The notes under the pieces: model-generated | Database searches by the model: none | The model's input: the letters and a program-made list of their open reading frames with translations, nothing else | What the model was told of the DNA's origin: nothing | NCBI GenBank assembly: GCA_964524005.1 | Contig: CAZGBK010000003.1 | Span: 3,155 to 67,154, forward strand | Length of the DNA: 64,000 bases | Origin: an uncultured Enterobacteriaceae bacterium | GTDB taxonomy: Bacteria; Pseudomonadota; Gammaproteobacteria; Burkholderiales; UBA3065 | Direction of reading: 5' to 3' | In this document: positions 43,043-63,890 of the stretch, piece after piece | Position numbering within the stretch: position 1 is the stretch's first letter | Layout: each line of letters opens with the position of its first letter | Translations under genes and position numbers: made by a program

Positions 43043-43045
43043 GGC

Positions 43046-43582: not shown

Positions 43583-43583
43583 C

Positions 43584-45635: not shown

Positions 45636-45644
45636 GGTCGGTCC

Positions 45645-46058: not shown

Positions 46059-46186
46059 GGGTCAGGGGTCTCCTCGAGGACGCGTGCCAGCGCCGCTCCG
46101 CGCAACCGCTGTGCGAGCAGGGCGTCGATGCCAAGCACGGCGAGACCGAGCGAATAACTGATGGCAATGGCAAGCGTGGCAGTCAT
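46055..46186 (-). CDS. ccmD: Haem exporter protein CcmD (43 aa)
   Basis: Small single-TM ORF MTATLAIAISYSLGLAVLGIDALLAQRLRG... between ccmC and ccmE. ATGA overlap with ccmE. Confidence 0.65.
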   Translation of the reverse strand: MTATLAIAISYSLGLAVLGIDALLAQRLRGAALARVLEETPDP

Positions 46187-46215
46187 GGGGTGTCGTGGGG
46201 TGAGATGGACAAGTG

Positions 46216-46953: not shown

Positions 46954-46957
46954 GGTC

Positions 46958-48319
46958 TTATTCTATGGCAAGGTCGAGGACGCGCCGCGCCACTGGGGGC
47001 ACCAGCAGCAGGGCCAACAGGCTGATCCCGGCGAGCACCAGCAGCGGCCCGGTCAGGCTCTGCGCGTCTTGTGCGGCCGACACAGTGGTCACCCCAAACA
47101 CCAATACAGGAACGAACACCGGGAAGCTCATCAGGCTGATCAAGACTTGCGCTTGGCGGGCCATCAGACCGAGTGCGCCAAACAGGACGGTCAACGCTCC
47201 CAACGCCAGGGTGCCGGCGGCCAGCGCCAGTGCCAGTGCGCCGATACCAGCTCCATCTAGGCTGTATTGCATGGCCAGCGGGATGCTGTAGATCGCCATC
47301 GGCAGGCCGAACAACAGCCACTGGGCGAGGATCTTGCCAGCCACCACAGCGGCCAGGGGAAAGCCTGAAGCTTTCAGCTGGGCCAAGATGCCATTGCGAA
47401 AATCGGCCTCGAGGTGTCGGCTGGCCGACAGCAAGGTGACCAGCAGGGCGCTGATCCACACCATGCCGGGCGCGATACGGGCGAGTTGTTGCGGGTCGGT
47501 GCCGACACCAAACGGGATCAGGCTGAGGATCATCCAGTGGAATACGCCGGGCCAGACCAGTTCGCGCGGGGCGGCCATCGCTAGGCGCGTCTCGCGGCGC
47601 AGCGCCCAGAACAGGGGCTGTGCATGCAAGGCGCGGCTAAAACCACCACCTTCCGCCACCGCAGGCGCATGCTCACCGGGCATCGGCTCGCAGCGAGCGC
47701 TGCGACCGCTTAACTCGACGCGTGCGTGGCAGAGCGCTGCCAGGCTTGGATCGAGGTCAGTCAGGTGCCGGTGTGTTGCCACCACAGCGATGCCACCAGC
47801 CTGCAGGTGTTCGCGCAGCAGTTGCAGGAACAGGCGGATGCCGTCGGCGTCGAGCGCATTGACCGGCTCGTCGATCAGCCAGACGCGTCGTTGGCTGTGC
47901 GCCATGGCCGTCAGTACCAGTCGTCGCCGTTGGCCCTCGGACAGCTGCTCGACGCGACGGTGGACCGCGCGCTCTAGGCCCACAGCCCGCAGTGCCAGGG
48001 CCGTATCGCGCGCGGGAAGATGCACCGCTAGGGGCTCGAGCGTGGCAGCGAGCTGCTCGTTGCAGCTAAGTTCGCCCCGCAGGGCCGGGGTCTGTTCAAA
48101 CAGGAAGATCTCGCCGCGGGCCGGCCAGCGCGAGTGGGTCGACAGCCGCGGCTGCAAGTCGGCAATGGTGCGCAGCAGGGTGCTTTTGCCACTGCCGTTG
48201 GGGCCACAAAGTTCGATATAGCGGCCTGCCGGCAGATCAAAGCTCAGAGATTCGGCCAGCGTGGCGTGGCCACGCGTCAGTCGCAGGTCGCGAACCCGCA
48301 GCACGGCGTCGCCGGTCAC
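46958..48319 (-). CDS. ccmA/ccmB: Fused CcmA (ABC ATPase) - CcmB (permease) haem export protein
   Basis: Single 453-aa ORF. N-terminal half has GPNGSGKST, LSEGQRRRL, WLIDEP and VVATH. C-terminal half has the CcmB pattern LIPFGVGTDPQQLARIAPGMVWISALL. No in-frame stop between them (junction read by hand). Confidence 0.8.
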   Translation of the reverse strand: MTGDAVLRVRDLRLTRGHATLAESLSFDLPAGRYIELCGPNGSGKSTLLRTIADLQPRLSTHSRWPARGEIFLFEQTPALRGELSCNEQLAATLEPLAVHLPARDTALALRAVGLERAVHRRVEQLSEGQRRRLVLTAMAHSQRRVWLIDEPVNALDADGIRLFLQLLREHLQAGGIAVVATHRHLTDLDPSLAALCHARVELSGRSARCEPMPGEHAPAVAEGGGFSRALHAQPLFWALRRETRLAMAAPRELVWPGVFHWMILSLIPFGVGTDPQQLARIAPGMVWISALLVTLLSASRHLEADFRNGILAQLKASGFPLAAVVAGKILAQWLLFGLPMAIYSIPLAMQYSLDGAGIGALALALAAGTLALGALTVLFGALGLMARQAQVLISLMSFPVFVPVLVFGVTTVSAAQDAQSLTGPLLVLAGISLLALLLVPPVARRVLDLAIE

Positions 48320-49578
48320 GGCCGTGGTGGGTCGATCTGCAGCAGGACCGCGTCGCCGCCGACGCGCACCGGCGAGCGTTGCACCGACCAGTCGCCCGGC
48401 TGTCGTACTGCATTGCCAGTGAGCGAGACGCGCGCCTCGATGCTGACGTTTGGAAACTTCGAAAGGACCAGCTGCGGCGCCATGGCCTGGCTGTCGTCGA
48501 GTGTGAAATTGACCATCCGGCCGCGCACCAGGTCATCGATCGGCAGGCGAACCACGGCCAACGGCATTGGCGGGCCATCGATCGCCTTGGCGACCACAAA
48601 CAGCACGGCCGTGTCGGGCAAGGCCTGTTTGCGGACGCGCTCGATCGCGGCGGGGCTGAAGGCGACCTGGCCCTGGACAGCTGCCGCCGCTGCCGTGGCG
48701 GACGTCCCGACGTCGGCCTCGGTATCGCCAAGTTCCGCCAGGATACGGCCGATCTGGCCGTAGTCTGGGTCGGTTGGCGGGAACAGTGCGCGCAGGCGCT
48801 TCCACAGGGTGATCGCCGATGCATTGTCGCCGGCCTGCATCGCCGCAGTGGCCGCCAGCGCTAGCGATTTCGGATGGTCGGGCCTGCTGCGCAGGGCCTC
48901 GGCGACCAGCTCCATCGGGCGCCCGGCGAGCGACTCATTGTTCATCATGGCGGTGGCATCGGCGAGGTCAGCCAACAGGTCCGGGTGTCCGGGCGCCAGC
49001 TTCAAGGCCTGCTCCAGGGCGCGGGCGGCGGCTGGATAATCGCGCTGCAGGGCACGCGACCGGGCCAGGATCACCCACCCCTCCAGGTTGTCAGGGCTTT
49101 CGGAGAGTTTCTGCTCGAGCAGGGCGATCCGTTCTTCCAGTGAGCCGTCGCCGGGGTGGTTCTCGCCGGCGCGCGGCGGTGCCGAACGGCTTAGCGTCGA
49201 TGGGACACCAAAGCCTGGTTTGGCAATGTGCATGGCTGGCTCGATGGGGCTGCCGATCCACAGATATGTGCCGACGCCACCGACGATCACCAGCGCCGGC
49301 AGCAACCAGCGTGGCAATGCCACGGACGTTACCGCTGCCGCAGGTTGCGCGATGCGCCCGGCTGCCGCGGCTTGTTCCTGCCACTCGGCGATCAAGGTGG
49401 CGCGCAGCGTCTCGTCGAGGTTGGGGTCAGTCTCGATCTCACGGCGGCGGGCCACCATCACTGCCCACTCGGCTTCGTCGCTGGCTGCAGCAACACTGTG
49501 CGAGGTGCGTAGGGCGCGCAGAAGACACCAGGCCGTCAGGAGCGTGGCCAGCAGAGCAAGGACGAGAAAGGCGAGCAT
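48316..49578 (-). CDS. ccmI: Cytochrome c maturation protein CcmI/CycH (2 TM + TPR)
   Basis: ATG at 49578 gives MLAFLVLALLATLL, a cytoplasmic loop and a second TM, then periplasmic TPR-like repeats. The stop overlaps the ccmA GTG (GTGA). Confidence 0.8.
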   Translation of the reverse strand: MLAFLVLALLATLLTAWCLLRALRTSHSVAAASDEAEWAVMVARRREIETDPNLDETLRATLIAEWQEQAAAAGRIAQPAAAVTSVALPRWLLPALVIVGGVGTYLWIGSPIEPAMHIAKPGFGVPSTLSRSAPPRAGENHPGDGSLEERIALLEQKLSESPDNLEGWVILARSRALQRDYPAAARALEQALKLAPGHPDLLADLADATAMMNNESLAGRPMELVAEALRSRPDHPKSLALAATAAMQAGDNASAITLWKRLRALFPPTDPDYGQIGRILAELGDTEADVGTSATAAAAAVQGQVAFSPAAIERVRKQALPDTAVLFVVAKAIDGPPMPLAVVRLPIDDLVRGRMVNFTLDDSQAMAPQLVLSKFPNVSIEARVSLTGNAVRQPGDWSVQRSPVRVGGDAVLLQIDPPRP

Positions 49579-49819
49579 GACAGGTGGGTTGTGCAATCAG
49601 CCCGACACTCTAGGCATTCGTCTCGACGATGTCCAACGCAGCGGACGGGCATGGATTTCCGGGCCATCGACGAGCGTCCGGACAATAAATTTCGGTCAAA
49701 GGGTTTAAAACCCGTTCGTAGAATGGATACACTTTGCAACAGACCGACGCGGGGGGGCGTCGGTTCACCGGTCGACCTGGCCGGTCCAATAAACGATCAG
49801 ACCGCGGGACGTCCAGGGG

Positions 49820-50635
49820 ATGACGCAAGAAAACGTTCTGACGTTGCACGGGTTCCGGTATTTCCGCTGGAGCCTGCTGCTTTCAGTGGCGGCCATCGTT
49901 GCCTATCTGCTGGATGATCCGCCGGTGGCACCCTACGGCGGTACCTGGCTGGGTTACACGCTGGGCACAGTCGGCGCACTCATCATCGTCTGGTTGATCT
50001 TGTTCGGCGCCCGCAAGCGCGCCTATCGGTCGAACCTGGGCTCGCTGCGAGGGTGGTTGTCGGCGCATATCTGGCTGGGCATCGCCCTGCTGGTGATCGG
50101 GACGCTGCACACCGGATTCCAGTTCGGCTGGAACATCCACACCATCGCTTACATCCTGATGTTGCTGGTCATCTTCAGTGGCATCTGGGGTGTGACAGTG
50201 TATTTGCGGAATCCGGCGTTGCTGAGCGAGATGATCGGCGGCAAATCGCTGCAGCAACACGGCGTGGTGCTGGCCGAACTCGATGCCGAGTCGCGCAACC
50301 TGGCACAAAAACTCGGCCCCGACGTGCAACAGCTGATCGAGGCATCGGCGCGCGCGCCCATCGTCAGCGGCGTGTTCGGTCGCTTTGCGGCGCCGGCAAG
50401 CTGCGCCACCGCCAATGCTGTGACGCAGCTGCAGCAGATCGGACTGTCCGGCGACAAGGCGATCCGCAACCTTTACGCCGTGCAAGTGCGCCGGCAACAG
50501 CAGCTCGAGCGTATCCGAGGCTTTTTGCGGCTGAAGGCGTGGACCGACCTCTGGCTGCTGATCCACGTTCCGGTGTCGATTGGCTTGTTGGCCACGCTCA
50601 CGGCGCACATCGTCTCTGTCTTCTTCTATTGGTGA
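49820..50635 (+). CDS. Five-TM membrane protein with two H-x13-H helices (putative di-haem b-type cytochrome)
   Basis: 271 aa. TM3 is AHIWLGIALLVIGTLHTG and the last TM is IHVPVSIGLLATLTAHIV, each with His pairs 14 positions apart. A soluble loop of about 110 aa lies between TM4 and TM5. Confidence 0.6.
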   Translation: MTQENVLTLHGFRYFRWSLLLSVAAIVAYLLDDPPVAPYGGTWLGYTLGTVGALIIVWLILFGARKRAYRSNLGSLRGWLSAHIWLGIALLVIGTLHTGFQFGWNIHTIAYILMLLVIFSGIWGVTVYLRNPALLSEMIGGKSLQQHGVVLAELDAESRNLAQKLGPDVQQLIEASARAPIVSGVFGRFAAPASCATANAVTQLQQIGLSGDKAIRNLYAVQVRRQQQLERIRGFLRLKAWTDLWLLIHVPVSIGLLATLTAHIVSVFFYW

Positions 50636-50641
50636 TCGATC

Positions 50642-52210
50642 ATGAGCGGCCCGACCCCTGAAGACCCGCTCAGCCAGGAGATCCGCGGCTTGCAGCGCCC
50701 GCTGCCGGGCCGCCGATTGGTGTCCTGGCTGCTGTTCCTGGTGGCATTGACAGCCTTCTTGCTGTTGCCGGTCGGTGCCGCATTGTTCAACGATGACCAG
50801 GGCGGCATGCGCGACTGGCCACTGATCGGCGCCATGTTCGGCGACGCTGACAGAGTCGATGCCCAGCTTCTCGGCCGTCGTCCTGACCCATCGGTCAAGC
50901 CCGACTTCATCCCTCGCGATGCCCAGGGGGTGTTCGCGCTGGCCGACTTGACCGGCTATCAAGCCACACCGCCCACCTTGATGGCCTTGGACCGATGGTG
51001 GAACCCGGGTCCCCTGGCAGCGGCCCACCAGCCTTGGGCGAACGACTGTCGTGCCTGCCACGCTGCGCCGTTTGGTCGCGTGCGTGACGAAGACTGTCTG
51101 GCTTGTCACAAGGTCTTGGGCGACCATGTCGACTTCACCCAAGTCAAAGATGCGCGGCTCGAGGTGCGATGTGCCAGCTGCCACCGCGATCACAAGGGTG
51201 AGTTTGCGCTGGCGGCGCAGAACAAGCATGCGGTGGGCCGTGACTGCGCCGACTGCCACCGGGACATCAAGGCGAGCTACGCCGATACCCAGACCGAGAA
51301 CGTCCGCGACTTTGTTGACGAGCACCCACAGTTCCGTGTGCAGGTGGCCAGCGACGCGGCTGGCAAGGTGCTGCAACGTGTGCGTCTGCCGACGAATGGT
51401 CTGCTGTCCCAGCCAACCAACTTGAAGTTCCCCCACGACGTCCACATGTCGGACAAGGGCGTCGGCAGCCCGAATGGCAAGGTCGTGATGAAGTGCGCCG
51501 ACTGCCATGAAGCCAACGGCGACGGCATCGGCTTCCGGCCGACCACCATGCAGGACCATTGCCAGAGCTGCCACGCATTGAAAATGGAGCCGACGCTGTC
51601 GAATCGCGAGGTTCCGCATGGCCCGGTGGACGACGTGCTCAGCACCCTGCGCGAGTTCTACAGCTTCGTCGCCACCACCGGCAGCGTGCCGCGCGGGCCC
51701 GAGCCGCTCACCCGCAACATCGTCATCAAGCGTCCGGGTGAGCCGGAACGTGCGCCACGCAGCTTCGTGTCGATGCCAGGCGACGGCAAGGCGCGGGCGA
51801 CTGCCGCGGCGATCGAGATGTTCGAGAAGACCTCCTGCGTGATCTGCCACGAGGTCAAGCGCGTACCCGGCCCGGGCAAAGCCGGCACCCCGGGGCGCGA
51901 CCTGCCGCAGTGGGAGATCGCGGCAGTGGCGCCAGACCACGCCTGGATGCCGAAGTCGACCTTTACCCACGCCTCGCACAGCGCCGCGACCTGCGAGAGC
52001 TGCCACGCTGCGAGCAAGTCGAAAGAAGCGACCGAGGTGCTGATGCCCGGAATCGACGGCTGCCGCGACTGCCACGCCGGAACCAAGCCGGTGGCCGACA
52101 AGATCGTCTCGGACTGCGCTCTGTGCCACGGCTTCCACATGCCTGGTCATACGCCGCCGCAGCCGCCGGCCAAGGGGTATCAGCTGCTCTCGGGTAGGGC
52201 GCAGCGATGA
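50642..52210 (+). CDS. Membrane-anchored decahaem c-type cytochrome
   Basis: 522 aa. N-terminal anchor LVSWLLFLVALTAFLLLPVGAALF. Ten CXXCH motifs: CRACH, CLACH, CASCH, CADCH, CADCH, CQSCH, CVICH, CESCH, CRDCH, CALCH. Confidence 0.85.
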   Translation: MSGPTPEDPLSQEIRGLQRPLPGRRLVSWLLFLVALTAFLLLPVGAALFNDDQGGMRDWPLIGAMFGDADRVDAQLLGRRPDPSVKPDFIPRDAQGVFALADLTGYQATPPTLMALDRWWNPGPLAAAHQPWANDCRACHAAPFGRVRDEDCLACHKVLGDHVDFTQVKDARLEVRCASCHRDHKGEFALAAQNKHAVGRDCADCHRDIKASYADTQTENVRDFVDEHPQFRVQVASDAAGKVLQRVRLPTNGLLSQPTNLKFPHDVHMSDKGVGSPNGKVVMKCADCHEANGDGIGFRPTTMQDHCQSCHALKMEPTLSNREVPHGPVDDVLSTLREFYSFVATTGSVPRGPEPLTRNIVIKRPGEPERAPRSFVSMPGDGKARATAAAIEMFEKTSCVICHEVKRVPGPGKAGTPGRDLPQWEIAAVAPDHAWMPKSTFTHASHSAATCESCHAASKSKEATEVLMPGIDGCRDCHAGTKPVADKIVSDCALCHGFHMPGHTPPQPPAKGYQLLSGRAQR

Positions 52211-54060
52211 TTCGTCGGTTGGGCAATGCGCTGTTTGGCTTCTCTGGTGCACTGATCGCGGCATTGGCGGCGACGCCGGCGCTCGCGAAGAAGCCCTTCT
52301 GCCACCCGGTCAGCGATCAGCCGCAGGCGCTCACCGTGGAAGATGTCGAGGCCATCGTCGGTCGAACAGCCACGGTGGCTAACCGTCTGGGCCAGGCCGA
52401 TACCACCATCGCTGTCGTCGATCGTGTCGGTAATGTGTTGGCGGTGTTCCAGACCGGCGAGGACCACCCGGTGCGGATTCGCAGTGGCCTGGTCGGCAAC
52501 CGTGCCCTTGGGTTAGAGAATTTCGAGGTGCCGTCGGCGACGTTGGCGGCCATTGCCAAGGCAGTCACCGGAGCCTACCTGTCGTCGTCGGGGAACGCGT
52601 TCAGTACTCGCACGGCCAGTTTCATCGTGCAGAAGAACTTCATCCCGACGCTCAATAACTTTCCTTCGGGGCCCCTGTATGGCGTGCAGTTCAGCCAGCT
52701 GCCATGCGGCGATTTCGTGCAGAAGGGTGACGTGCCCGGTGTCGGGCCGCGCCGCTCGCCCTTGGGCCTGTCGGCCGATCCGGGCGGCTTCCCGCTGTAC
52801 AAGAACGGTCGCGTCGTCGGGGGTATCGGCGTCGTTGTCAGGGGCAGCGACTACTCGCTCGACCTCGACCCCCGCAACAGTGATGCCGATGTCGAAGAGA
52901 TCATTGCCGAGGCCGGTTCTTTGAGCTACGCGGCACCAAAGTGCATCCGCGGCGAGCGCATCACCGCCGGCGGTTTCAACTTCCGTTATTCCGATGCTAC
53001 GCGTCGTTTGCCGCGCAACCCGGGTGTCGAAGGCTTCAGCGGCCGCTATGTGGCGGTGGGCGGCTTCAAGGCCGATCCAGCGCCGATCGCCGGTCTGGCC
53101 TACGGCGATGCCGCTTCCGGCTACATGCTTCAGGCGGCTGGGCCCTTCGCCTCGCGGCGCGGTATGGTACTGGTCGACGCGGCTGGCAATAACCGCCACG
53201 CGCCGCGCGACTCCCTGCTGCCAGCCACCGCTGGCGGCGGTTTGAGCGATGTCGAAGTGACCACCCTGTTGCAGCAGGCGCTCGGGGTTGCCAATCAGGC
53301 GCGCGCGCAGATCCGCCGGCCCCTCAATGTCCCGGCCGAGGTCACCATTTCGGTGGTCGATGCAGCCGGCAACCTGCTGGGCATGGTCCGCACCCCGGAT
53401 GCGCCGGTGTTCGGCACCGACGTCTCGCTGCAAAAGGCGCGCACGGCAGCGTTCTTTTCTCGCAGCGATGCCGCCGCGGACTTGGTAGACCTGGGTATGG
53501 GCCGCTACGTCTCGGCTTCCGAGGCATTCTTCGGCGCCAACGCGTTCGCCGATGGCACTGCCTTTACCGCGCGCGCCATCGGCAATGTTGCGCGGCCACA
53601 TTTCCCCGACGGTATCTCGGGCAAAGCGGAGGGCCCCCTCTCGGTGCCGATCAGCGACTGGAGCCCATTCAACGTGGGTCTGCAGCTCGACCTGGTCGCC
53701 GGGCAGATCGTTCCGTCGCTGTTCGGTGATGTGAACGCGTGTACGGCAATGCCGGTGGGCATCGACAACGGTATCCAGATCTTCCCTGGTGCGGTACCGA
53801 TCTACCGCGACGGCGTGGTGATCGGGGGCATCGGCATCTCGGGCGACGGCGTCGATCAGGATGACATGATCGCTGCGTTGGGCCTGGAGCGCGCTCGACA
53901 GGCGCTGGCGGCATCCGGCAACAGCAATCCGCCCGGTCATGCGCCGCGAGGGCAGCGTTCGGACAACGTCGCGGTGCCGGGCCCCGGTTCGCTGCGCTAC
54001 GTGCAGTGTCCGCAAACCCCGTTCGTCAGTAGCAAGGCACAGAATGTCTGTCAGTTCTAG
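52207..54060 (+). CDS. Secreted protein with two GlcG/HbpS-like (haem-degrading / DUF336-type) domains
   Basis: Signal peptide ...AALAATPALA|KK. Two copies of the pattern TIAVVDRVGNVLAVF...GGFPLYKNGRVVGGIGVV and TISVVDAAGNLLGMVRTPDAP...SLQKARTAAFF...FPGAVPIYRDGVVIGGIGISGDGVDQDD. ATGA overlap with the upstream gene. Confidence 0.65.
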   Translation: MIRRLGNALFGFSGALIAALAATPALAKKPFCHPVSDQPQALTVEDVEAIVGRTATVANRLGQADTTIAVVDRVGNVLAVFQTGEDHPVRIRSGLVGNRALGLENFEVPSATLAAIAKAVTGAYLSSSGNAFSTRTASFIVQKNFIPTLNNFPSGPLYGVQFSQLPCGDFVQKGDVPGVGPRRSPLGLSADPGGFPLYKNGRVVGGIGVVVRGSDYSLDLDPRNSDADVEEIIAEAGSLSYAAPKCIRGERITAGGFNFRYSDATRRLPRNPGVEGFSGRYVAVGGFKADPAPIAGLAYGDAASGYMLQAAGPFASRRGMVLVDAAGNNRHAPRDSLLPATAGGGLSDVEVTTLLQQALGVANQARAQIRRPLNVPAEVTISVVDAAGNLLGMVRTPDAPVFGTDVSLQKARTAAFFSRSDAAADLVDLGMGRYVSASEAFFGANAFADGTAFTARAIGNVARPHFPDGISGKAEGPLSVPISDWSPFNVGLQLDLVAGQIVPSLFGDVNACTAMPVGIDNGIQIFPGAVPIYRDGVVIGGIGISGDGVDQDDMIAALGLERARQALAASGNSNPPGHAPRGQRSDNVAVPGPGSLRYVQCPQTPFVSSKAQNVCQF

Positions 54061-56170
54061 GACCTTCCGCTCGCTGCGGGTCGGCCCAGGGCTGTTGCCG
54101 CTGGCACTCGCGCTGTGGCTGCAGCCTGCATTTGCGGCGCCCGAGCCACAGCCGCCGCGTGACCCCAACGACCACAATCCGACCTACGTCGGCCGCAAGG
54201 CGGTGGCGCAAGTGCAGGTGGTTGCGGCATCGGTGCTGCTGCGTGCCGAACCCGATGCCGAGGCCTTGGCGGTGGGGCGGGTCGATCGAGGGCAGCTGCT
54301 GACAGTGCTCGAGCAGCGTGGCGACTGGTTCCGCGTTCGCGTTGCCAGCGCCCCTGAAGAGCGTTCGGCCTGGTTGCTGCGCGAACCGGCCGAGTACGGC
54401 GAGTGGAGTGTGGACCTGCTCTACGCCGCTGGCGAGACCGGCTTCGCCCGCGAGGCGATCGGTGCCGCCGAGGGTGAATTGCCAGCGCTGGACGAAGCCC
54501 GGCCGGCGGTGCCCAGCCGCGTGGTCACATTGCCGCCGCTCGACCCCGATCAGCTGCCGCCGCCGCAAGCCAACCTCCCGCGCGAGTCGGTGCCCATTCC
54601 GGACCGCTGGCGACTGATGCAGGCGCTGGGGTTCAAATTCCCCTGGTACGACCCTTATAACCAGAATGTACTGAAGGGCGATCTGCCGGTGCTGGCGATC
54701 GGCAAGGACTGGTTCTTCAACTTCACCGGCATTTCGGACAGCTTGTTCGAGATACGCTCGACGCCGCTACCGGTGTCGCAGGCCATCGCCTTTCGGCCCA
54801 ACAGCAACAACATCTATGGTGATTACGACCAGCGTATCTTTGGCCAGAACCTGATCTTCAACGTCTCGCTGACCAAGGGCAACACCACCTACCGGCCGCC
54901 CGATTGGGAGTTCCGGCTGGTGCCCGTGATCAACTATGTCAACGCCCGCGTCGACGAGGCCGGGATCCTGCGCATCAACCCGCAGGAGGGCCTGACCCGC
55001 GAGACCAGTTTCATCGGTATCCAGGAGGGGTTTGTCGACTACCACCTGCGGAACGTGTCCGATCGCTACGACTTCGACTCGATCCGCGTCGGCATCCAGC
55101 CATTTATCAGTGATTTCCGCGGTTTCGTGTTCCAAGACACGCAGTTTGGCGTGCGCTTGTTCGGCAACCGCCACAACAACGTCTACCAGTACAACCTGGC
55201 GTGGTTCCGGCGGATCGAGAAGGACATCAATAGCGGTCTGAACGACATCGGCAAGCCGCTGCGCGACGACGACATCTTCGTCGCCAACCTGTATCGGCAG
55301 GACTTTCCGATCACCGGCCTGACCACTCAGGGCACGGTGATCCACAACCGCAACCGCGAGACCGACTTCTTCTACGACCGCAACGGCTTTGTGCAACGGC
55401 CGGCGCTGCTTGGCGAGGCGCGGCCGCGAGAATACGACGTGACGTACCTGGGCCTGACGTTCGACGGCCACTTCGGCATGGTCTACCCCGATTGGCGGCT
55501 GAATATCAGCAGCTCGACCTACTTTGCTGTTGGCCGCGACCGCAACAGTCCGCTGGCTGAGCGTCCCAACGACATCCGCGCCTTCTTCCATGCCACCGAG
55601 CTGTCGCGCGACTTCAGTTGGGTCCGGCTGCGTGGGAATTTCCTGTACGCCAGCGGCGACCGCGATCCTTATGACGGGAAGGCCACAGGCTTTGACGCCA
55701 TCTTCGAGAACCCGCAGTTCGCCGGGGCTGATACCAGCTACTTCATCCGCCAGGGCATCCCGCTGATCGGCGGGGGCCTGGTCACGCTGTCGGGGCGGAA
55801 CGGGATCCTGCCGTCGCTGCGGTCAAGCAAGGAGCAGGGCCAGTCGAACTTCGTCAACCCGGGGCTGCTGCTGATCGGCGCTGGGGCCGACTTCGACGTC
55901 AGACCCGAGCTGCGGCTAACCACCAACATCTCGTACCTGCGTTTCAATGAGACCGCCGTGTTGGGTGCTTTGCGCAACGAGCGCAAGCCTGGGCGGGACC
56001 TTGGCATCGACTTCTCGGTTGGCGCGCAGTGGCGCCCGTTCTTCAACCAGAACGTGATCATCAACGGCTCTTTGTCGGTGCTGAAGTTGGGCGACGGCCT
56101 GAAAGACCTCTACGGTGATCGCAACGACCCGTTCTACTCCGGAATCATCAACGCCATCTTGACCTTCTGA
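54044..56170 (+). CDS. Outer-membrane beta-barrel protein with N-terminal SH3b-like domain
   Basis: ATG at 54044 gives the signal peptide MSVSSRTFRSLRVGPGLLPLALALWLQPAFA|AP. SH3-like segment VLLRAEPDAEALAVGRVDRGQLLTVLEQRGDWFRVRV. About 560 aa with alternating aromatic/polar beta-strand character. C-terminal ...INAILTF. Confidence 0.65.
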   Translation: MSVSSRTFRSLRVGPGLLPLALALWLQPAFAAPEPQPPRDPNDHNPTYVGRKAVAQVQVVAASVLLRAEPDAEALAVGRVDRGQLLTVLEQRGDWFRVRVASAPEERSAWLLREPAEYGEWSVDLLYAAGETGFAREAIGAAEGELPALDEARPAVPSRVVTLPPLDPDQLPPPQANLPRESVPIPDRWRLMQALGFKFPWYDPYNQNVLKGDLPVLAIGKDWFFNFTGISDSLFEIRSTPLPVSQAIAFRPNSNNIYGDYDQRIFGQNLIFNVSLTKGNTTYRPPDWEFRLVPVINYVNARVDEAGILRINPQEGLTRETSFIGIQEGFVDYHLRNVSDRYDFDSIRVGIQPFISDFRGFVFQDTQFGVRLFGNRHNNVYQYNLAWFRRIEKDINSGLNDIGKPLRDDDIFVANLYRQDFPITGLTTQGTVIHNRNRETDFFYDRNGFVQRPALLGEARPREYDVTYLGLTFDGHFGMVYPDWRLNISSSTYFAVGRDRNSPLAERPNDIRAFFHATELSRDFSWVRLRGNFLYASGDRDPYDGKATGFDAIFENPQFAGADTSYFIRQGIPLIGGGLVTLSGRNGILPSLRSSKEQGQSNFVNPGLLLIGAGADFDVRPELRLTTNISYLRFNETAVLGALRNERKPGRDLGIDFSVGAQWRPFFNQNVIINGSLSVLKLGDGLKDLYGDRNDPFYSGIINAILTF

Positions 56171-56172
56171 CG

Positions 56173-59100
56173 ATGTCCCAGCCCAGCCCAACCTCTGCCC
56201 CCGTTCACCCTGTCACGCGTCGTGCCGCGACCTGGGCGCGCTGGTGCGCGCTGGCAGTGGTCGCCATTGCCGCTCCTCTGCTGTTGACCGGTGGCGGCGA
56301 ACCGGCGACTGCCGCCGAGGCCAAGCTGGTCAAGCGCGACTACGTGATGGCGCCGCCGGCGCCCAAGGCGCAGACCTGGGAAGAGGCCAAGGTCAAGACC
56401 GACGGCTGCATGAGCTGCCACACCGAGACCGACGCCCACACCATGCACGCCAACCCAGGTGTGGTGCTGGGCTGTACCGACTGCCACGGTGGCAATGCTG
56501 ACGTCTGGCGGGCAAAGTCGGGCCCCGAGGCCGAGCCGACCCACCCGGCCTACATCGAGGCGATGAACAGTGCCCACATCCTGCCGCGCAACCCCAAGCT
56601 GTGGAAGAACGCCGCCAATCCTGCCGGCACCTACGCCCACCTGAACAAGGAACATCCGGCCTTCGTGCGTTTCATCAACCCGGGGGATCTGCGGGTTGCG
56701 CGCGATGCCTGTGGGGCGTGTCACCTACCGATCATCCAGGCGCAGGAACGCAGCCTGATGAGCACCTCGTCGATGCTGTGGGGCGGTGCGGCGTACAACA
56801 ACGGCATCTTGCCGTTCAAGCGCTACATGCTGGGCGAGGCTTACACCCAGGACGGTACCGCCGCGGCGATCGTCAACCCGGTGAAGCCCGACGAAGACCT
56901 GTTCGTCTTCAAGGGGGTGCTGGAGAAGCTCTACCCGCTGCCGGCGTGGGAGACCATTCCGCCGGGCGACGTGTTTCGCGTGTTCGAGCGTGGCGGACGG
57001 GTGATCAACAGTATCTTCCCCGAGGTCGGCCTACCCAACAGCACCGGCATCCTGCAGCGTCTGGATGAGCCGGGACGTCCCGACATCAAGCAGAGCAACC
57101 GCGGTCCGGGGACCGGCAACCGCATCTCGGTACCGGTGATCAACTTGACCAAGACGCGCCTGAACGACCCGCATTTGTGGTTTTTGGGTACCAACGACAA
57201 CCCAGGCGATTATCGCTCCTCGGGCTGCACCGCCTGCCACGTGGTCTACGCCAACGACCGCCAGCCAGGCCACAGCGGGCCGTATGCGCAGTTCGGCAAC
57301 ATGGGCCGCACGCAGACGGTCGACCCGACGATCCCCAAGGATCGCTCTGGCCATCCGCTGCAGCACGTGTTCACGCGGGCCATCCCCAGTAGCCAGTGCA
57401 TGGTCTGCCACATGCACCAGCCGAACATCTACGTGAACTCGTTCTACGGCTACCTGCAGTACGACTACGAGCCAGACGCACCGCGTATGTTCCCGGCCAA
57501 GCAGCACTACCCGAGCGACGCCGAGATCCGCGAGATCAACCTGCGCAACCCGGAAGAGGCGGTGATCCGCGGCAATTGGCGTGACCCGGCGTTCCTGAAC
57601 GACCTCTGGCTGAAGAACGACCAGATGAAGGACACCCAGTTCGCCGACTATCACGGCCACGGTTGGGTGTTCCGCGCTGTCCACAAGCGCAACCGCAAGG
57701 GCGCGCTGCTCGACAAGGACAACAACATCGTCGCCGACGACGATCCGGACAAGTTCAAGAAGGCGGTGCATCTGTCGTCGATCCACCTCGACCTCGGCAT
57801 GCACTGCGTCGACTGCCACTTCTCGCAGGACATGCACGGCAACGGCCACATCTACGGCGAAGTGGCGGCTGCGATCGAGATCGACTGCGCCGACTGCCAT
57901 GGCACCGCCAAGGCCTATCCGACGCTGCACACCAGTGGCCCGGCAGCTCGCCCCGGCGGCATGGACCTCACCCTGCTGAAGACCGCCGACGGTCGCAAGC
58001 GCTTCGAGTGGATCGACGGCGTGCTGTATCAGCGTTCGTCGCTCGACCCGAAGCTGGAATGGAAGATGTCGCTGGTGCGGGATTCTGTGAATCCCGATCA
58101 TCCCGAGTACAACGCCAAGGCCGCGCGCGCCAAGCTGATGGCAGCAGGCGAGGAGGGGCGTCAAGGCAAGTGGGGGCCAGGCGTCGAGAACTTGGCGCAC
58201 GACAACGATCGTATGCTCTGCTTCACCTGCCACCTGAGCTGGACCACCAGCTGCGCTGGCTGTCACCTGCCGATCCAGGCCAACTGGAAGACCGAGCGCA
58301 ACCACTTCGAGGGTGGAGAGACGCGTAACTACGCCACCTACAACGTCCAGGTGGTGCGCGAGGACATGTTCCAGCTGGGCATCCATGGTCCAGTCAAGAA
58401 CAGCCGCATCGCACCGTTCCGTTCGAGCTCGGCGCTGGTGCTTTCGTCGCAGAACAGCAACCGCGAACGTATCTACTACCAGCAGCCACCGATCGCCGCG
58501 AGCGGCTTTTCGAGCCAGGCCTTTGCCCCGCATTACCCGCACACCGAGCGCAAGGAAGAGACCAAGACCTGCACCGACTGCCATGTGTCGCGGGACAACG
58601 ACAACAACGCGATCATGGCGCAGCTGCTGTTGCAGGGCACCAACTTCGTCAACTTCGTCGGCCGCTACGCCTGGTTAGGTTCAGAGAAGCATGTCGAGTC
58701 GGTGGGTGTGACCGAATGGGATGAGCCGCAGGCGGTGATCGGCTCGTACCTGCAGAAGTACGTCTACCCAGACTGGTATGCCGAGCACCAGAAACACGGT
58801 CGCGAGATCGTCGACATGCCGCACCGCGAGGCCGCCACACACATTCGTGCCCCGGACGCGGCCCAGTGCCTGCAGATGCGTGGCGAATACCTGTTTGTGG
58901 CCGAGGGCAAGGGCGGTTTCCGTGTCTATGACATTGCCGGTAACGGCAACAAAGGCGTGAGCCAGCGCATCATCCGCGCGCCGTTCTCGCCGTTGGGCCA
59001 CGATGCGCACGTGCCGTCGAAGAATGCCACCTGCGTCGCCCTGCCGACCAACCAGCCCATCGCGCCGACCCGCAACCAGGGCGACCTGATGCGCAAGACC

Positions 59101-60045
59101 AACATGGAGCAGCCGTTCCACCCGATCTACCACTACGCGTTTGTAGTCGACGCCGACGAGGGGCTGATCGTCGTCAATGTCGATACCTTTGCCGACGGCG
59201 AGGCGCGCAACAACTTCCTCAAGCGCGCAGCCACCTGGAATCCGGGCGGCGTCTTGAAGGGTGCTCGGCACATCGTGGTGGCGGGGCACTACGCCTATAT
59301 CACGACGCCCAAGGGCCTGGAGATCATCGACCTCGATGACCCGCTGGCACCCAAGCCGTTCGCGTCGATCCCGCTGAACGATGCGCGTGCCAGCGCGGTG
59401 CAGTTCCGCTACGTGTATGTGACCACTGGCGAGGGCCTGCAGGTGGTCGACATCACCGACATGAAGCCGCGTCTGTTGCCAGCAGTGGTCCCGCTGAAGG
59501 ACGCGCGCCGCGTCTACCTGGCTCGCACCTACGCCTATGTCGCTGCCGGCGCCGAGGGCCTGGCGATTGTCGATATCGAGAAGGCCGACGCGCCACGGCT
59601 GCACCAGATGTACACCGCCGATGGCCGCATCAATGACGCACAGGACGTGATCGTCGGTAGCACCAATGCCTCGTTGTTCGCCTATGTGGCCGACGGCCGT
59701 AACGGCCTGAAGGTGCTGCAGCTGACTTCGCCCGAGATCCAGCCCAAGTTCTACGGCTTCTCACCGGAACCGAAGCCAGAATTGATCGCCACGCGCAAAA
59801 CCAAGTCGCGCGCGATCGCGCTGTCGAAGGGCCTCGATCGCGACCGTGCGGTGGACGAGACCGGTGGACAGATCGCCATCATCGGGCGGATCGGCGCGCG
59901 GCCGTTCAACCGCAAAGAGATGGACAAGCTGTATCTGAATCCGCAGGGCGAACTGTGGACGGTGACCGACCGCGTCGACACCTCCGCTTTCGTTCCGCGG
60001 CGCAGGCCGGCCGATCTGGCCAGTGACAAGCGAGGCAAGCCATGA
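56173..60045 (+). CDS. 1290-aa decahaem c-type cytochrome fused to an LVIVD-repeat beta-propeller-like C-terminal domain
   Basis: Ten CXXCH motifs between nt 56407 and 58583: CMSCH, CTDCH, CGACH, CTACH, CMVCH, CVDCH, CADCH, CFTCH, CAGCH, CTDCH. Then six G-[LF]-x-[IV]-[IVL]-[DNQ] repeats: [48 protein letters not shown]. Confidence 0.8.
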
Positions 60046-61433
60046 GGCACGTGTTGACAAGGGTGGCTGGCGAGGTCCGGCGCGTTGTTAGAGAGAGCGG
60101 TTGTGTTCTGGCAAGCCGGGTGCTGGCGGCATGGCTGCTCGCCGCAGGTGCCAGCATGGCAACGGCGGCGCCGCTGATGCCGCATCTGTCGCCGCACAAG
60201 ACCGAAGGCACGGTGAACTGCGCGAGCAGCACCTGCCACGGCTCGGTCACCCCCTGGGATGGCAGCAACGTGCTGCAGAACGAGTACACCACGTGGACGC
60301 GCATGGACAAGCACACCACGGCCTACCGGGTGTTGCTGAACGACGAATCCAAGCGCATCGCCAAGAACCTCGGTCTGACCGAGGGCGCGCACAAGGCCAA
60401 GATCTGCCTGGATTGCCATGCCCACAACCCCAGTGGCCCGGTCGGCGAGCGTTTCGTGCAGAGCGAAGGCATCGGTTGCGAGGGCTGTCATGGCCCGTCG
60501 GGCAAGTGGATCGGCCCGCACACGGTCGAGGGCCGCACTCACGCGCAGAACGTCGCCGATGGCCTGTACCCGACCGCCAACCCCACCGCCCAGGCGCGGC
60601 TGTGCCTGTCGTGTCACTTTGGTGACGAGTCGCGCTTCGTCACACACCGCATCATGGGCGCCGGTCACCCGCGGATCTCGTTCGAGATCAAGACCTTCAC
60701 CGCGATCCAGCCGCAGCACTGGAAGGTCGACGCCGATTACATCCAGCGCAAGGGCAGCTACGATCCGCTGCGCGTCTGGGCCATCGGCCAGGCGATCGCC
60801 GCGCAGCAGATCCTCGATGTCATCGCTGACCCGAAGCGTCGCGACGGCCTGTTCCCGGAACTGGTCGCCTTCGACTGCCACGCCTGCCACCACGCCATGA
60901 GCGACAAGCGCTGGAATGCCCGCCTGGGCACTGGTCCTGGGGTGGTGCGGGTGAATGACAGCAACCTGCTGATGCTGCGGGCGATCGTCCGTGCTACCGA
61001 CCCATCCGCCTCGGCGGCATTCGACGCGCAGGTCAAGGCCATGCATCTGGCGGTATCGACGGGCAAGAAGCCGGCCGGCAAGACCGAGCTCGACATGGTG
61101 CGCGAACTGTCGGCGAGTATCGGCGCGATGTTGCCCAAGCTGGAAAAGACGAGCTTCCCGCCGGCAACCATGCGCCAGGTGCTGCTGGCGTTGATCGACG
61201 AGTCGCGTGAGTCGAGTTATTCGGACTACGCCGGTGCCGAGCAGGCCTACATGGCGATCACCAATGTCGCCAATAGCCTGATCCAGTCGGGCACGCTGAC
61301 GCTCAACCCGCAGCTGCGCAGCGGCATGGCCGACCTTCTGAAGAGTCTGGCCAACGACGAGCGCTACAAGCCGGATGCTTTCGCCAACCAGTTGCTGGCC
61401 TTGCGTGGCGTGGTTGCCGCGCAGGCACGCTAG
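60042..61433 (+). CDS. Periplasmic multihaem c-type cytochrome (4 CXXCH + 1 CX4CH)
   Basis: 463 aa. Signal-like RVLAAWLLAAGASMATAAP. Motifs CASSTCH, CLDCH, CEGCH, CLSCH, CHACH. ATGA overlap with the upstream gene. Confidence 0.75.
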   Translation: MRHVLTRVAGEVRRVVRESGCVLASRVLAAWLLAAGASMATAAPLMPHLSPHKTEGTVNCASSTCHGSVTPWDGSNVLQNEYTTWTRMDKHTTAYRVLLNDESKRIAKNLGLTEGAHKAKICLDCHAHNPSGPVGERFVQSEGIGCEGCHGPSGKWIGPHTVEGRTHAQNVADGLYPTANPTAQARLCLSCHFGDESRFVTHRIMGAGHPRISFEIKTFTAIQPQHWKVDADYIQRKGSYDPLRVWAIGQAIAAQQILDVIADPKRRDGLFPELVAFDCHACHHAMSDKRWNARLGTGPGVVRVNDSNLLMLRAIVRATDPSASAAFDAQVKAMHLAVSTGKKPAGKTELDMVRELSASIGAMLPKLEKTSFPPATMRQVLLALIDESRESSYSDYAGAEQAYMAITNVANSLIQSGTLTLNPQLRSGMADLLKSLANDERYKPDAFANQLLALRGVVAAQAR

Positions 61434-61457: not shown

Positions 61458-63890
61458 ATGGGCATGATGTTCGCCGAGGTCGACGCCGAATACGACATTG
61501 TCATCGTCGGTTCGGGGCCGGCTGGTCTGTCGGCCGCGTCGCGCGCGCAAGAGCGCGGCAACCGCTACGTGCTGCTCGAGGCTGAAGACCACGCATCCGA
61601 CACCATCTACAAGTACCAAAAGGGCAAGCATGTGATGGCCGAGCCGGGCTTCTTGCCCCTGCGTTCGGGCATGAAGTTCGCCGAGGGCAAGCGCGAGGGC
61701 ATCCTTGGCGAGTGGGACGATGCGCTGAAGGGCCAAGGCATCAATATCGCCTACAAGAAGAAGGTCAGCGGCATTCAGCGCGACCCGAAGACCGGCCAGT
61801 TCACCATCAGCTGCGAAGACGGCAGCACCTACACCAGCCGTACGGTGATCCTTGGCATCGGCTTGCAGGGCAACATCCGCAAGCTTGGCGTGCCGGGCGA
61901 AAACCTGCCGCGGGTGCAATACACCCTGTCGGACCCGGACGAGTTCAAGGACGAGGTCATTGTTGTGGTCGGTGCCGGCGACGCCGGTATCGAGAATGCC
62001 TGCGCCTTGGCCAAGCAGAACCAGCTGCACCTGATGAACCGCGACGTCGAGTTCACGGTGTGTAAAGACGGCAACAAGAACCTGGCGCTGGCGACGGAAA
62101 AGTCCGGAAAGATGACCATCTGGCACTCGGCGTTCGCCGTGCGGGTGGAAGAGACTGGTGCCGAACCGCCGCTGAACTACGTCTTCAACAGTAAAGACGG
62201 CGAGGTGAGCATCCCCTGCCATCGCGTGGTCGCCCGTTGCGGGGCGATCCCCCCGCGCAAGCTGGTGGAGAGCTTCGGGATCGAGTTCCCCAACCCGAAC
62301 CCGACCTCCATTCCGGTGCTGTCCGAGACCTACGAGTCGAACGTGCCGGGCTTGTTCGTGGTCGGCGCGCTGGGCGGTTACCCGCTGATCAAGCAGGCGA
62401 TGAACCAGGGCTACGAGGTGGTCGAGACGATCAACGGCGAGGTCGTCGAGCCGGTCGACGAGCCGCTGATCCGCGAGCGCCTGCAGAGCTGGAAGCCGAA
62501 CGCCAACGTCGGCGAGCTGATCGACAGCCTGCGGGCGATGTCGCCGTTCTTCGGTGCGATGTCGAAGCTGCAGATGCGCGAGATCCTGCTCGAATCGAAT
62601 GTCCGTGTGCTGCGCGAAGGCGACACCGTTTACAAGAAGGGCGACTACACCGCCAGCTTCTTCTCGATCGCCGAGGGCAGTGTGCAGGTGCAGGTGGGTG
62701 AGGCAGAGGGCTCGATCACGCTCGAGGCCGGCCGCTTCTTTGGCGAGATGAGTCTGCTCTCGGGCCGCCGAACCACTGCCACCGTGCTCGCCGGGCGCGG
62801 CTGCGTGCTGATCGAGACGCCGCGACGCACCATGCTCAAGCTCATCGCATCGTCGGATGAAGTCAGCAAGCAGATCGACAACGCCTTTGTTCGCAACGCC
62901 ATCATCAGCTATATCGGGCCGATGATGACTCCGGCAGCGATCGATGCGCTGCTCGAGGGCGGCGTTCAGCTGAAGCGCTTCAACGCCAAGCAGGTGGTGT
63001 TCAATGCCGGTGACGATCCGGACGGTTTGTACCTGATCCGTCGCGGTTCCGTCGAGGTGAGTATCCAGTCCGGTGGGCGCAAGGAGGTGCTGGGCGTGGT
63101 ACCGGCTGGCGGCTATGTCGGCGAGATGGCGCTGGTTGACGACGCCAAGCGCATGGCGACGGTGACCGCAACCGTGCTGACCGAGGCGCTGGTGTTCGAC
63201 GGTGCCCGCTTCAAGGCCGAGATCGATCGCAACTCACAGCTGCGCGAAGCCCTGCAGGCGATGATCCTCGAGCGCACCCGCAAGAACGTGGCGAAGAGCG
63301 AGAAGTCGTCCAGCGGGTCGTTCATGCAGCAGTTCTTGCTAGCGCAGGGGGTGGGCGAGGCGACCAATATCCTGGTGATCGACGAGACCAAATGCGTGCA
63401 GTGCAACAACTGCGAGATCGCCTGTGCCGAGACGCATGACGGTGTCTCGCGGCTGCGCCGCGATGTCGGCCCGACGCTGAACCACGTGCACATCCCGGTG
63501 GCCTGCCGCCACTGCGAGAACCCGCACTGCATGAAGGACTGTCCGCCGAATGCGATCAGCCGGCAGGCGAACGGCGCGGTGTTCATCGCCGACACCTGCA
63601 TCGGCTGCGGCAACTGCGAGCGCAACTGCCCCTATGGCGTGATCTCGCTGGCGCCGCAGAAGCCGCCCAAGTTCGGCGCCGGCTGGATGTGGCTGCTGTT
63701 CGGCATCGGCTCGCCGCCGGGGCAGCGTGCCCCGGATTACGATCCGGATGCGCGTAAGCAGGCGGTCAAGTGCGACCTTTGCGCGTCGGTGAAGGGTGGG
63801 CCGCGCTGCGTGAACGCCTGTCCGACCGGGGCCGCGATCCGCATGGCACCCGAGACGCTGCTGCAGCGGGTCGAGTCGGGAAGCCTGTAG
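61458..63890 (+). CDS. FAD/NAD(P)-dependent oxidoreductase fused to two cNMP-binding domains and a four-cluster [4Fe-4S] ferredoxin domain
   Basis: 810 aa with no signal peptide. DIVIVGSGPAGLSAA and VIVVVGAGDAGIENA Rossmann motifs. FFGEMSLLSGRRTTATV and YVGEMALVDDAKRMATV cNMP motifs. CVQCNNCEIAC, CRHCENPHCMKDCP, CIGCGNCERNCP, CDLC...CVNACP. Confidence 0.8.
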   Translation: MGMMFAEVDAEYDIVIVGSGPAGLSAASRAQERGNRYVLLEAEDHASDTIYKYQKGKHVMAEPGFLPLRSGMKFAEGKREGILGEWDDALKGQGINIAYKKKVSGIQRDPKTGQFTISCEDGSTYTSRTVILGIGLQGNIRKLGVPGENLPRVQYTLSDPDEFKDEVIVVVGAGDAGIENACALAKQNQLHLMNRDVEFTVCKDGNKNLALATEKSGKMTIWHSAFAVRVEETGAEPPLNYVFNSKDGEVSIPCHRVVARCGAIPPRKLVESFGIEFPNPNPTSIPVLSETYESNVPGLFVVGALGGYPLIKQAMNQGYEVVETINGEVVEPVDEPLIRERLQSWKPNANVGELIDSLRAMSPFFGAMSKLQMREILLESNVRVLREGDTVYKKGDYTASFFSIAEGSVQVQVGEAEGSITLEAGRFFGEMSLLSGRRTTATVLAGRGCVLIETPRRTMLKLIASSDEVSKQIDNAFVRNAIISYIGPMMTPAAIDALLEGGVQLKRFNAKQVVFNAGDDPDGLYLIRRGSVEVSIQSGGRKEVLGVVPAGGYVGEMALVDDAKRMATVTATVLTEALVFDGARFKAEIDRNSQLREALQAMILERTRKNVAKSEKSSSGSFMQQFLLAQGVGEATNILVIDETKCVQCNNCEIACAETHDGVSRLRRDVGPTLNHVHIPVACRHCENPHCMKDCPPNAISRQANGAVFIADTCIGCGNCERNCPYGVISLAPQKPPKFGAGWMWLLFGIGSPPGQRAPDYDPDARKQAVKCDLCASVKGGPRCVNACPTGAAIRMAPETLLQRVESGSL

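Follow-up and report, generated by a model that had tools for sequence, protein, structure and literature searches.

A decahaem c-type cytochrome fused to a beta-propeller of LVIVD repeats is encoded by a single gene, here called g1290, in a stretch of 64,000 nucleotides from an uncultured bacterium of the Burkholderiales (assembly GCA_964524005.1, contig CAZGBK010000003.1, positions 3,155 to 67,154), referred to below as the window. The fusion is real and conserved, and it is not unique: the family is very large, and g1290 is an unremarkable member of it. This family is uncharacterised, with no structure and no curated family to represent it. We favour, at an even chance, a reading in which seven conserved genes encode a module that transfers electrons across the cell envelope; g1290 would be its outer cytochrome, facing the periplasm, and the propeller would dock a partner or a substrate. 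The basis for this reading consists of domain make-up, haem-site conservation and synteny, together with propeller and barrel folds at the level of structural models. The features of g1290, in window coordinates, are as follows.

56173..60045, plus strand: g1290, decahaem c-type cytochrome with LVIVD beta-propeller (open reading frame, ten CXXCH motifs, LVIVD match of 62.9 bits)
56173..56313, plus strand: N-terminal signal peptide region, residues 1-47 (hydropathy scan, hydrophobic core at residues 19-37, no lipobox)
56350..57492, plus strand: haem module 1, residues ~60-440, haems 1-5, CXXCH at residues 79, 101, 180, 352 and 409 (motifs, homology to module 2)
57670..58662, plus strand: haem module 2, residues ~500-830, haems 6-10, CXXCH at residues 545, 572, 683, 694 and 800 (motifs, homology to module 1)
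58666..59862, plus strand: beta-propeller, residues ~832-1230, six LVIVD blades and a probable seventh closing blade (AlphaFold2 (AF2), Foldseek, repeat positions)

The open reading frame begins with ATG and remains open for 1290 codons, giving a protein of 1290 residues. An earlier sequence-only reading of the window had placed ten CXXCH motifs in roughly the first 800 residues, and exactly ten have been found, between residues 79 and 800, with no variant haem motif (CXXCK, CX3CH, CX4CH or CX15CH) elsewhere in the protein. In a 97-sequence alignment, none of the ten falls below 95% conservation, and exactly ten are present in 81 of 82 orthologues. Motif conservation and orthologue counts therefore indicate that neither the haem motifs nor the repeats described below are due to chance. 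Alignment of the N-terminal and C-terminal halves of the haem region with hhalign (probability 96.6%, E 6.4e-10) pairs haems 1-3 with haems 6-8. The halves being homologous, the haem region is a tandem duplication of a pentahaem module, which suggests a pentahaem ancestor. Besides the histidines of the CXXCH motifs, 13 further His residues in this region are at least 90% conserved in the same alignment, a number which suffices for ten bis-His haems, as judged from counts and not from geometry. All ten motifs are held within residues 48-850 (803 residues), amounting to ~80 residues per haem, a spacing nearer to that of multihaem enzymes than to that of MtrA-type wires.

When the PDB was searched with the full-length protein and with each half, no solved structure was significantly matched. 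A family profile produced marginal matches (E ~0.005) to NrfA, NrfB and ActA of Alternative Complex III, confined to short haem-motif stretches, with the NrfA-like similarity also seen for module 2 (E ~0.005), and the pentahaem c552 structure 5ZE8 was matched at E = 4.7 only. Among the NCBIfam models, ExtM, a cytochrome of selenite/tellurite operons, gave a partial match over 50 residues (56 bits against a cut-off of 800). The earlier statement that g1290 is unlike MtrC and OmcA holds, and no match to a characterised octahaem or decahaem enzyme was found in NCBIfam or the PDB. With conserved CXXCH motifs, an export signal and an adjacent cytochrome c maturation (ccm) operon, g1290 has the properties of a multihaem c-type cytochrome.

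The propeller region contains six repeats of the pattern [YF]x[YF][VI]..G..G-h-x-[IV]-[ILVY]-[DNQ], at residues 915 (GFRVYD), 997 (GLIVVN), 1048 (GLEIID), 1088 (GLQVVD), 1129 (GLAIVD) and 1178 (GLKVLQ). They span nucleotides 58915-59724, in agreement with the interval of about 58860-59740 proposed previously. The description of six regularly spaced repeats with a G-hydrophobic-x-[IV]-[IVL]-D signature stands as to their number, but only three fit that strict pattern and the spacing (82, 51, 40, 41 and 49 residues) is regular for the last four only. The profile search that had been recommended gives an LVIVD (PF08309) score of 62.9 bits for g1290, against a gathering cut-off of 20.2, and 25 of 25 aligned family members match as well. 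In an AF2 model built on a 25-sequence alignment, the predicted local distance difference test (pLDDT) score is ~90 at residues ~830-1230, where four-strand units carry the LVIVD motif on their third strand. All 50 PDB matches listed by Foldseek are beta-propellers, 7-8-bladed ones being among the best, and they include AztD, the BtuG-like BT2095, the designed Tako8, cytochrome cd1 nitrite reductase and BamB, so that the expected propeller is borne out by the model. Its blade number, read from the DSSP string of the model, is probably seven, the six LVIVD blades being joined by a closing blade predicted from strands at residues ~832-845 and ~1203-1217. Beyond residue 900, the 97-sequence alignment contains no conserved His, Cys or Met, the invariant propeller residues being Asp, Glu, Arg, Asn, Gly and structural Tyr. 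A binding or docking head, such as the substrate- or surface-binding head first proposed, fits this better than a metal or cofactor catalytic site.

As regards location, g1290 is most likely periplasmic and associated with the outer membrane. No lipobox is present in its N-terminus, and a lipobox match is likewise absent in 79 of 82 orthologues, whose N-termini are hydrophobic and by eye resemble type-I signal peptides; only the other three give a match. No secretion genes (type II or Slam) were found in the gene cluster. The surface-exposed head proposed in the sequence-only reading is accordingly not supported.

Fused proteins of this kind have proved to be widespread, as a genome search for the same domain fusion has revealed. 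At least 8000 homologues of g1290 are present in a database clustered at 90% identity. The top 120 of these are full-length and 69-85% identical, originating from Janthinobacterium, Duganella, Undibacterium, Limnobacter and many metagenomes, and they bear no other names than "hypothetical", "LVIVD repeat-containing" or "multiheme c-type cytochrome". An exhaustive search of representatives at 50% identity returned 1140 proteins at E <= 1e-30, with full-length fused representatives down to 41% identity, including members from Planctomycetota and Ca. Xenobia. In a one-genome-per-species collection, at least 597 stretches encode a fused relative, the best 80 of which belong to Beta-, Gamma- and Alphaproteobacteria, Acidobacteriota and one metagenome-assembled genome (MAG) labelled Bacteroidia. 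Common aerobes of fresh water, soil and the sea are among the hosts, for example Janthinobacterium, Duganella, Limnobacter, Sphingobium, Halieaceae and Lysobacterales. The source names of g1290 relatives are all generic, as are the PGAP names within the cluster of Sphingobium herbicidovorans.

The gene g1290 lies within a cluster of seven packed genes, separated by gaps of -17 to +24 nucleotides, in which terminator-like matches do not exceed the expectation from shuffled sequence. The remaining members and the adjoining maturation operon are listed below.

42629..49596, minus strand: System I cytochrome c maturation operon, complete and divergent from the cluster (CcmH, G, F, E, C, fused CcmA/B, CcmI; Pfam)
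49820..50635, plus strand: g271, putative dihaem-b protein with five transmembrane segments, ferric-reductase-domain-like, similar to PtdF and to the PCC4 inner-membrane protein (two WX3HX13H motifs, SGXXG)
50642..52210, plus strand: g522, membrane-anchored decahaem protein, PtdG-like (ten CXXCH, one transmembrane segment at residues 23-41)
52207..54060, plus strand: g617, secreted protein with two HbpS/GlcG/DUF336-like domains (Pfam HbpS-like, 72 bits, two stretches; signal peptide)
54044..56170, plus strand: g708, outer-membrane barrel with an N-terminal SH3-like domain, 18 strands predicted, AlgE/OprD-like (SH3_3 match, AF2, Foldseek)
60042..61433, plus strand: g463, periplasmic c554-like cytochrome with four CXXCH and one CX4CH, PtdD-like (Pfam Cytochrome_C554)
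61458..63890, plus strand: g810, cytoplasmic FAD/NAD(P)-binding oxidoreductase with two cyclic-nucleotide-binding (cNMP-binding) domains and a 4Fe-4S dicluster domain (Pfam)

Synteny has been assessed over 82 loci, where many absences correspond to contig ends. The barrel gene g708 is found immediately upstream of g1290 in 81 of these, and the other partners are present in 70 (g617), 61 (g522), 60 (g810), 58 (g271) and 51 (g463). Haem counts are conserved across orthologues at ten for g1290, ten for g522 and four for g463, with ten motifs in 57 of 61 g522 orthologues. In alpha- and gammaproteobacterial loci, g810 and g271 share a strand, with g810 ~2.4-3 kb upstream, a distance consistent with its being the gene directly before g271. 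The arrangement of the window, ccm operon included, recurs in Janthinobacterium sp. HH01, and the pairing of ccm with the cluster is also observed in Limnobacter and other Burkholderiales loci, so that the module seems to travel with its own cytochrome maturation system. More distant loci retain smaller sets: a Planctomycetota locus contains only the g617-g708-g1290 trio, with ResB/CcsA adjoining, and another has g1290 together with the c554-like, cNMP/FeS, ferric-reductase-like and decahaem proteins. That different subsets are kept points to two parts, an outer trio and an inner-membrane/periplasmic electron-transfer set.

Some of these components merit further description. In g617, PDB sequence matches were obtained to EfgA, PduO-C and an HbpS-like protein. 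The Pfam matches of g810 comprise Pyr_redox_2/3, two cNMP_binding domains and Fer4_11, and neither a transmembrane segment nor a signal peptide was detected in this protein. A GAF-GAF-PAS adenylate/guanylate cyclase (40267-42624, plus strand) adjoins the ccm operon, and this neighbour could supply the cyclic nucleotide for the cNMP-binding domains of g810. In g463, a CX4CH motif (CASSTCH, residues 60-66) lies ~60 residues ahead of the first CXXCH and is present in 51 of 51 orthologues. Given this conservation, the nominally tetrahaem g463 is probably pentahaem, with one unusual haem-binding site.

The gene upstream of g1290 had been identified as an outer-membrane barrel, and several observations bear this out. 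The open reading frame for g708 is listed as 53939..56170, and its likely start is an internal Met 105 nucleotides later, at nucleotide 54044, because a signal peptide (ending ALWLQPAFA/AP) begins there and most of the overlap with g617 is thereby removed, leaving 17 nucleotides. Its C-terminus reads ILTF, and all complete orthologues end in [LIV]x[FY] with an aromatic last residue, which is the classical outer-membrane beta-signal. The AF2 model contains 18 long antiparallel strands at residues 223-707 and an SH3-like domain at residues 53-129, the latter being limited to the closest lineages (Betaproteobacteria). Foldseek gave AlgE, an 18-strand alginate exporter, as the best match (E 1.5e-15, TMt 0.68), followed by OprD/Occ channels (E ~1e-9) and ScrY. 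While these are the best structural matches of the model, AlgE and OprD have no significant sequence similarity to g708, which differs from them in its SH3-like periplasmic domain and in an invariant glycine-rich internal segment; a Planctomycetota orthologue shows a faint Alginate_exp Pfam match. No polysaccharide genes were found near g708. The most conserved stretch of the protein, at residues ~540-607 (nucleotides 55661-55864), is glycine-rich and nearly invariant (…FENPQFAGADTSY…IGGGG…SLRSSK.QGQSNF.NPG…), and it could form an in-barrel plug or a partner-binding loop. The gap of two nucleotides reported between g708 and g1290 is confirmed by the sequence, where the TGA of g708 (56168-56170) is followed by CG and by the ATG at 56173; the two genes are probably translationally coupled.

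The module in the window is a variant of the putative PCC4/ptd clusters, from which its outer module (HbpS-like protein, barrel and decahaem-propeller protein) differs. The PCC4 clusters (He et al., 2017; PMC5566968) and the putative porin-cytochrome operon ptdABCDEFG, the function of which "remains completely unknown" in the words of its authors (bioRxiv 10.1101/2023.11.21.568154), were both proposed from sequence alone. Apparently the ptd operon is PCC4, and their component lists coincide. Inner-membrane proteins of PCC3 and PCC4 have two WX3HX13H motifs and SGXXG (PMC5566968). The corresponding motifs of g271, likened here to PtdF and the PCC4 inner-membrane protein, each with five transmembrane segments and ferric-reductase-like character, are WLSAH-X13-H, FSGIWG and WLLIH-X13-H, and a distant g271 orthologue scores 27.6 bits with PF01794 against a cut-off of 28. 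In PCC4, an Fe-S (PF13247)/cNMP-binding protein and an FAD/NAD(P) oxidoreductase accompany the membrane protein, and both are represented by g810, in which the oxidoreductase PtdC and the cNMP-binding 2x[4Fe-4S] protein PtdE are fused. The decahaem PtdG corresponds to g522 (ten CXXCH) and the tetrahaem PtdD to g463 (four CXXCH), and in both systems a porin gene adjoins that of a multihaem cytochrome. In contrast, PtdA is a pentahaem protein with a beta-sandwich, whereas the window encodes a decahaem protein with a seven-bladed LVIVD propeller, so that haem counts are 4/10/10 here and 4/5/10 in ptd, and the double HbpS/DUF336 protein is an addition. The pairs g1290/PtdA and g708/PtdB have been set side by side by published description. 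Considering the duplicated pentahaem module and the faint NrfA-like signals, g1290 may descend from a PtdA-like ancestor.

Taken as an electron-transfer chain, the module would operate in five steps. Electrons would enter at the cytoplasmic FAD/FeS protein g810, gated by cyclic nucleotide, and would cross the inner membrane through the ferric-reductase-like dihaem-b protein g271, which together with g810 resembles the NADPH oxidases. The membrane-anchored decahaem g522 and then the c554-like g463 would relay them to the ten haems of g1290, probably all bis-His and derived from the pentahaem duplication. Through the propeller, this haem chain would most likely be docked on the periplasmic side of the outer membrane, to a substrate or to a partner, the candidate partners being the barrel g708 and/or the HbpS-like g617. 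In this scheme, the most likely role of g708 is that of a channel for solutes, rather than of a sheath around the cytochrome. Known ferric-reductase-domain proteins (NOX, FRE, STEAP and MsrQ) pass electrons out of the cytoplasm, and for this reason the preferred direction is outward, from NAD(P)H to an acceptor in the periplasm or entering it. A fuller version has also been considered, namely a hitherto unrecognised, cyclic-nucleotide-gated electron-export pathway like that of NADPH oxidases, in which a substrate (e.g., a metal chelate, an oxidant or O2) is admitted through the AlgE-like channel and reduced at the decahaem-propeller protein; in this complete form we regard the proposal as unlikely. 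If true, it would reveal a widespread non-respiratory envelope reductase in ordinary aerobes, with ~25 c-haems and a new type of terminal module.

A number of observations weigh against the favoured reading. The pLDDT of the g1290 haem region is low (30-80), and its fold and haem ligation have been deduced from sequence alone. AF2 confidence for g708 is moderate (mean pLDDT 64, strands 70-85) and falls below 50 in the core of the conserved segment, residues 552-600, where the cytochrome could make contact. Electron transfer can also be served by small barrels, of which Cyc2 is an example. Lipobox-like N-termini occur in 4 of 15 distant full-length representatives, such as the Planctomycetota protein P0125, and would suit a location in the outer membrane or at the surface in those lineages, and Pfam describes LVIVD repeats for cell-surface proteins. 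The contacts between module components are putative, and the outward direction of flow is argued only from analogy, inward flow to quinone having been proposed for PCC4 (He et al., 2017; PMC5566968).

Of the alternatives, inward oxidation survives best. In it, the same module runs in reverse, with a reduced donor, periplasmic or incoming (Fe(II) or Mn(II), for example), being oxidised at g1290 and electrons passing through the cytochromes to the dihaem-b protein and the quinone pool, and its likelihood is contained within that given to the favoured reading. The architecture is analogous to MtoAB/PioAB as argued in PMC5566968, hosts have been recovered from freshwater, groundwater and filter-type habitats, and the phototrophic host of the window could use such electrons. 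By analogy, however, the ferric-reductase-like protein and the conserved NAD(P)H/FAD-FeS partner in the cytoplasm point outward, and the majority of hosts are ordinary aerobic heterotrophs, which are not known to oxidise iron or manganese. Reversed flow is therefore considered possible and rather doubtful.

A lower standing is given to a periplasmic multihaem enzyme comparable to cytochrome cd1, hydrazine synthase or the quinohaemoproteins, where the propeller or one of the haems is catalytic, an N-oxide, sulfur species or metal oxyanion arrives through the AlgE/OprD-like channel, and the other cytochromes feed or drain electrons. Several of the findings above are in keeping with such an enzyme, including the low haem density over residues 48-850, the faint profile similarity to NrfA and ActA, the partial ExtM match, the presence of cd1 nitrite reductase among the fold matches of the propeller and a barrel of the substrate-channel type; for the sibling cluster, the ptd authors raise a role in the nitrogen cycle (bioRxiv 10.1101/2023.11.21.568154). 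Nonetheless, g1290 has no CXXCK, CX15CH or other catalytic haem motif, its conserved His residues are enough for ten bis-His haems, no conserved His, Cys or Met is available in its propeller as a ligand for a metal or haem d1, and no solved enzyme is significantly matched, all of which make this explanation unlikely. Membership in the known enzyme families was examined separately. The NrfA/OTR/HAO/MccA group was rejected for want of variant haem motifs, the best NrfA match having E ~0.005 over short stretches, as was a cytochrome cd1-type assignment, since the propeller has no conserved cofactor ligands and the likeness exists at fold level only.

The weakest alternative is the porin-cytochrome conduit of the sequence-only reading, where the barrel accommodates the decahaem wire, inserted in it or docked through it, and a surface propeller head binds a mineral, a metal ion or a partner. 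The barrel gene neighbours the cytochrome gene in 81 of 82 loci, LVIVD repeats are annotated by Pfam as cell-surface repeats, some distant homologues have lipobox-like N-termini, and a very conserved, unmodelled segment lies inside the barrel; moreover, BtuG-like BT2095 (8bmx_D, 8okv), a surface propeller capping an outer-membrane transporter, is among the best fold matches. On the other hand, the barrel models with 18 strands and resembles AlgE, OprD and ScrY, whereas MtrB, the sheath of MtrA, has 26 and needs them to enclose it; a lipobox match occurs in only 3 of 82 orthologues, type II secretion and Slam genes are missing from the cluster, and MtrC/MtrF domain matches are found in only 6 of 25 members, g1290 not among them. 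Because c-type cytochromes fold round their haems in the periplasm, a folded, haem-loaded protein of 1240 residues should not be exportable through an 18-strand barrel. The 18-strand barrel, the missing lipoprotein signal of g1290 and the lack of a secretion system in the cluster thus speak against insertion, and a threaded surface wire, the least supported part of the earlier reading, is quite improbable.

Comparison with the established conduits leads in the same direction. Like MtrCAB, MtoAB and PioAB, the cluster combines decahaem genes beside an outer-membrane barrel gene with a cytochrome chain to the inner membrane. Nevertheless, no sequence match to MtrC, MtrA or MtrB was found, g708 models with 18 strands in place of the ~26 expected of an MtrAB-type sheath (in a model of moderate confidence), and the haem density of g1290 is far lower than that of MtrA. 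In contrast to MtrC and OmcA, g1290 lacks a lipoprotein signal (lipobox Cys), and the MtrC/MtrF pentahaem domains II/IV (PF22113), which in those cytochromes alternate with beta-barrel domains, give no match in g1290. The inner-membrane entry also differs from that of MtrCAB, consisting of a ferric-reductase-like b-type protein and a cytoplasmic flavoprotein and not of CymA/NapC.

Propellers have been described near multihaem cytochromes in other organisms. NHL propellers are found beside multihaem cytochromes and a barrel in Desulfovibrio ferrophilus (DFE_0450/0464), in Geobacter (Gmet_0556) and as UetH/UetI, and they have been proposed to stabilise the complex or to mediate adhesion. Those propellers are NHL-type and separate proteins, whereas the propeller of g1290 is LVIVD-type and covalently fused to the cytochrome. 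A search within one library of papers found no description of LVIVD repeats fused to a multihaem cytochrome. Two further assignments were rejected, namely PCC3 (He et al., 2017), whose cytochromes are of low complexity with a median of 21-34 haems, and the Uet cluster, where the LVIVD protein is separate, haem-free and encoded elsewhere in the genome.

With ~25 c-haems and its own maturation operon, the module represents a large investment, which indicates that it is probably important in envelope redox chemistry. Possible roles include metal cycling, detoxification, electron uptake and the generation of reactive oxygen species. A second, more widespread outer module is now connected with the PCC4/ptd clusters, about which little is known. 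Since the cluster is present in cultured strains, among them Janthinobacterium sp. HH01, Sphingobium herbicidovorans MH and Limnobacter thiooxidans, these possibilities are directly testable.

Horizontal spread of the cluster is indicated by plasmid carriage and by a transposase. A g1290 relative is present on plasmids of 0.4-1.3 Mb in 12 Sphingobium records and one Sphingopyxis record, and plasmids of this size carry the whole cluster in both genera. In Sphingobium herbicidovorans MH, the whole cluster is held on plasmid pMSHV (794297-822187), typed as conjugative, and in Janthinobacterium HH01 an IS110 transposase follows the cluster (L001 17804-18955). A full cluster was also found on MAG contig CAMCQE010000013.1, labelled Klebsiella pneumoniae, at 74-75% identity to the betaproteobacterial-type protein of the window, and this label is probably a binning or taxonomy error. 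The contig of the window occurs in aquatic, groundwater and freshwater metagenomes; the runs retrieved in a search of sequencing data were all metagenome DNA runs of such origin, and no usable RNA evidence was among them.

A photosynthesis gene cluster occupies positions 1218-33171 of the window and encodes PufL, PufM, two CrtI/CrtD-type desaturases, a PpsR-like PAS/HTH_8 regulator, a BchB/N-like protein, BchH, BchL, an AcsF-like cyclase of the rubrerythrin fold and Dxs. The nearest homologues make the Burkholderiales the probable group of the host, and the presence of this cluster indicates that the host is a bacteriochlorophyll-containing bacterium.

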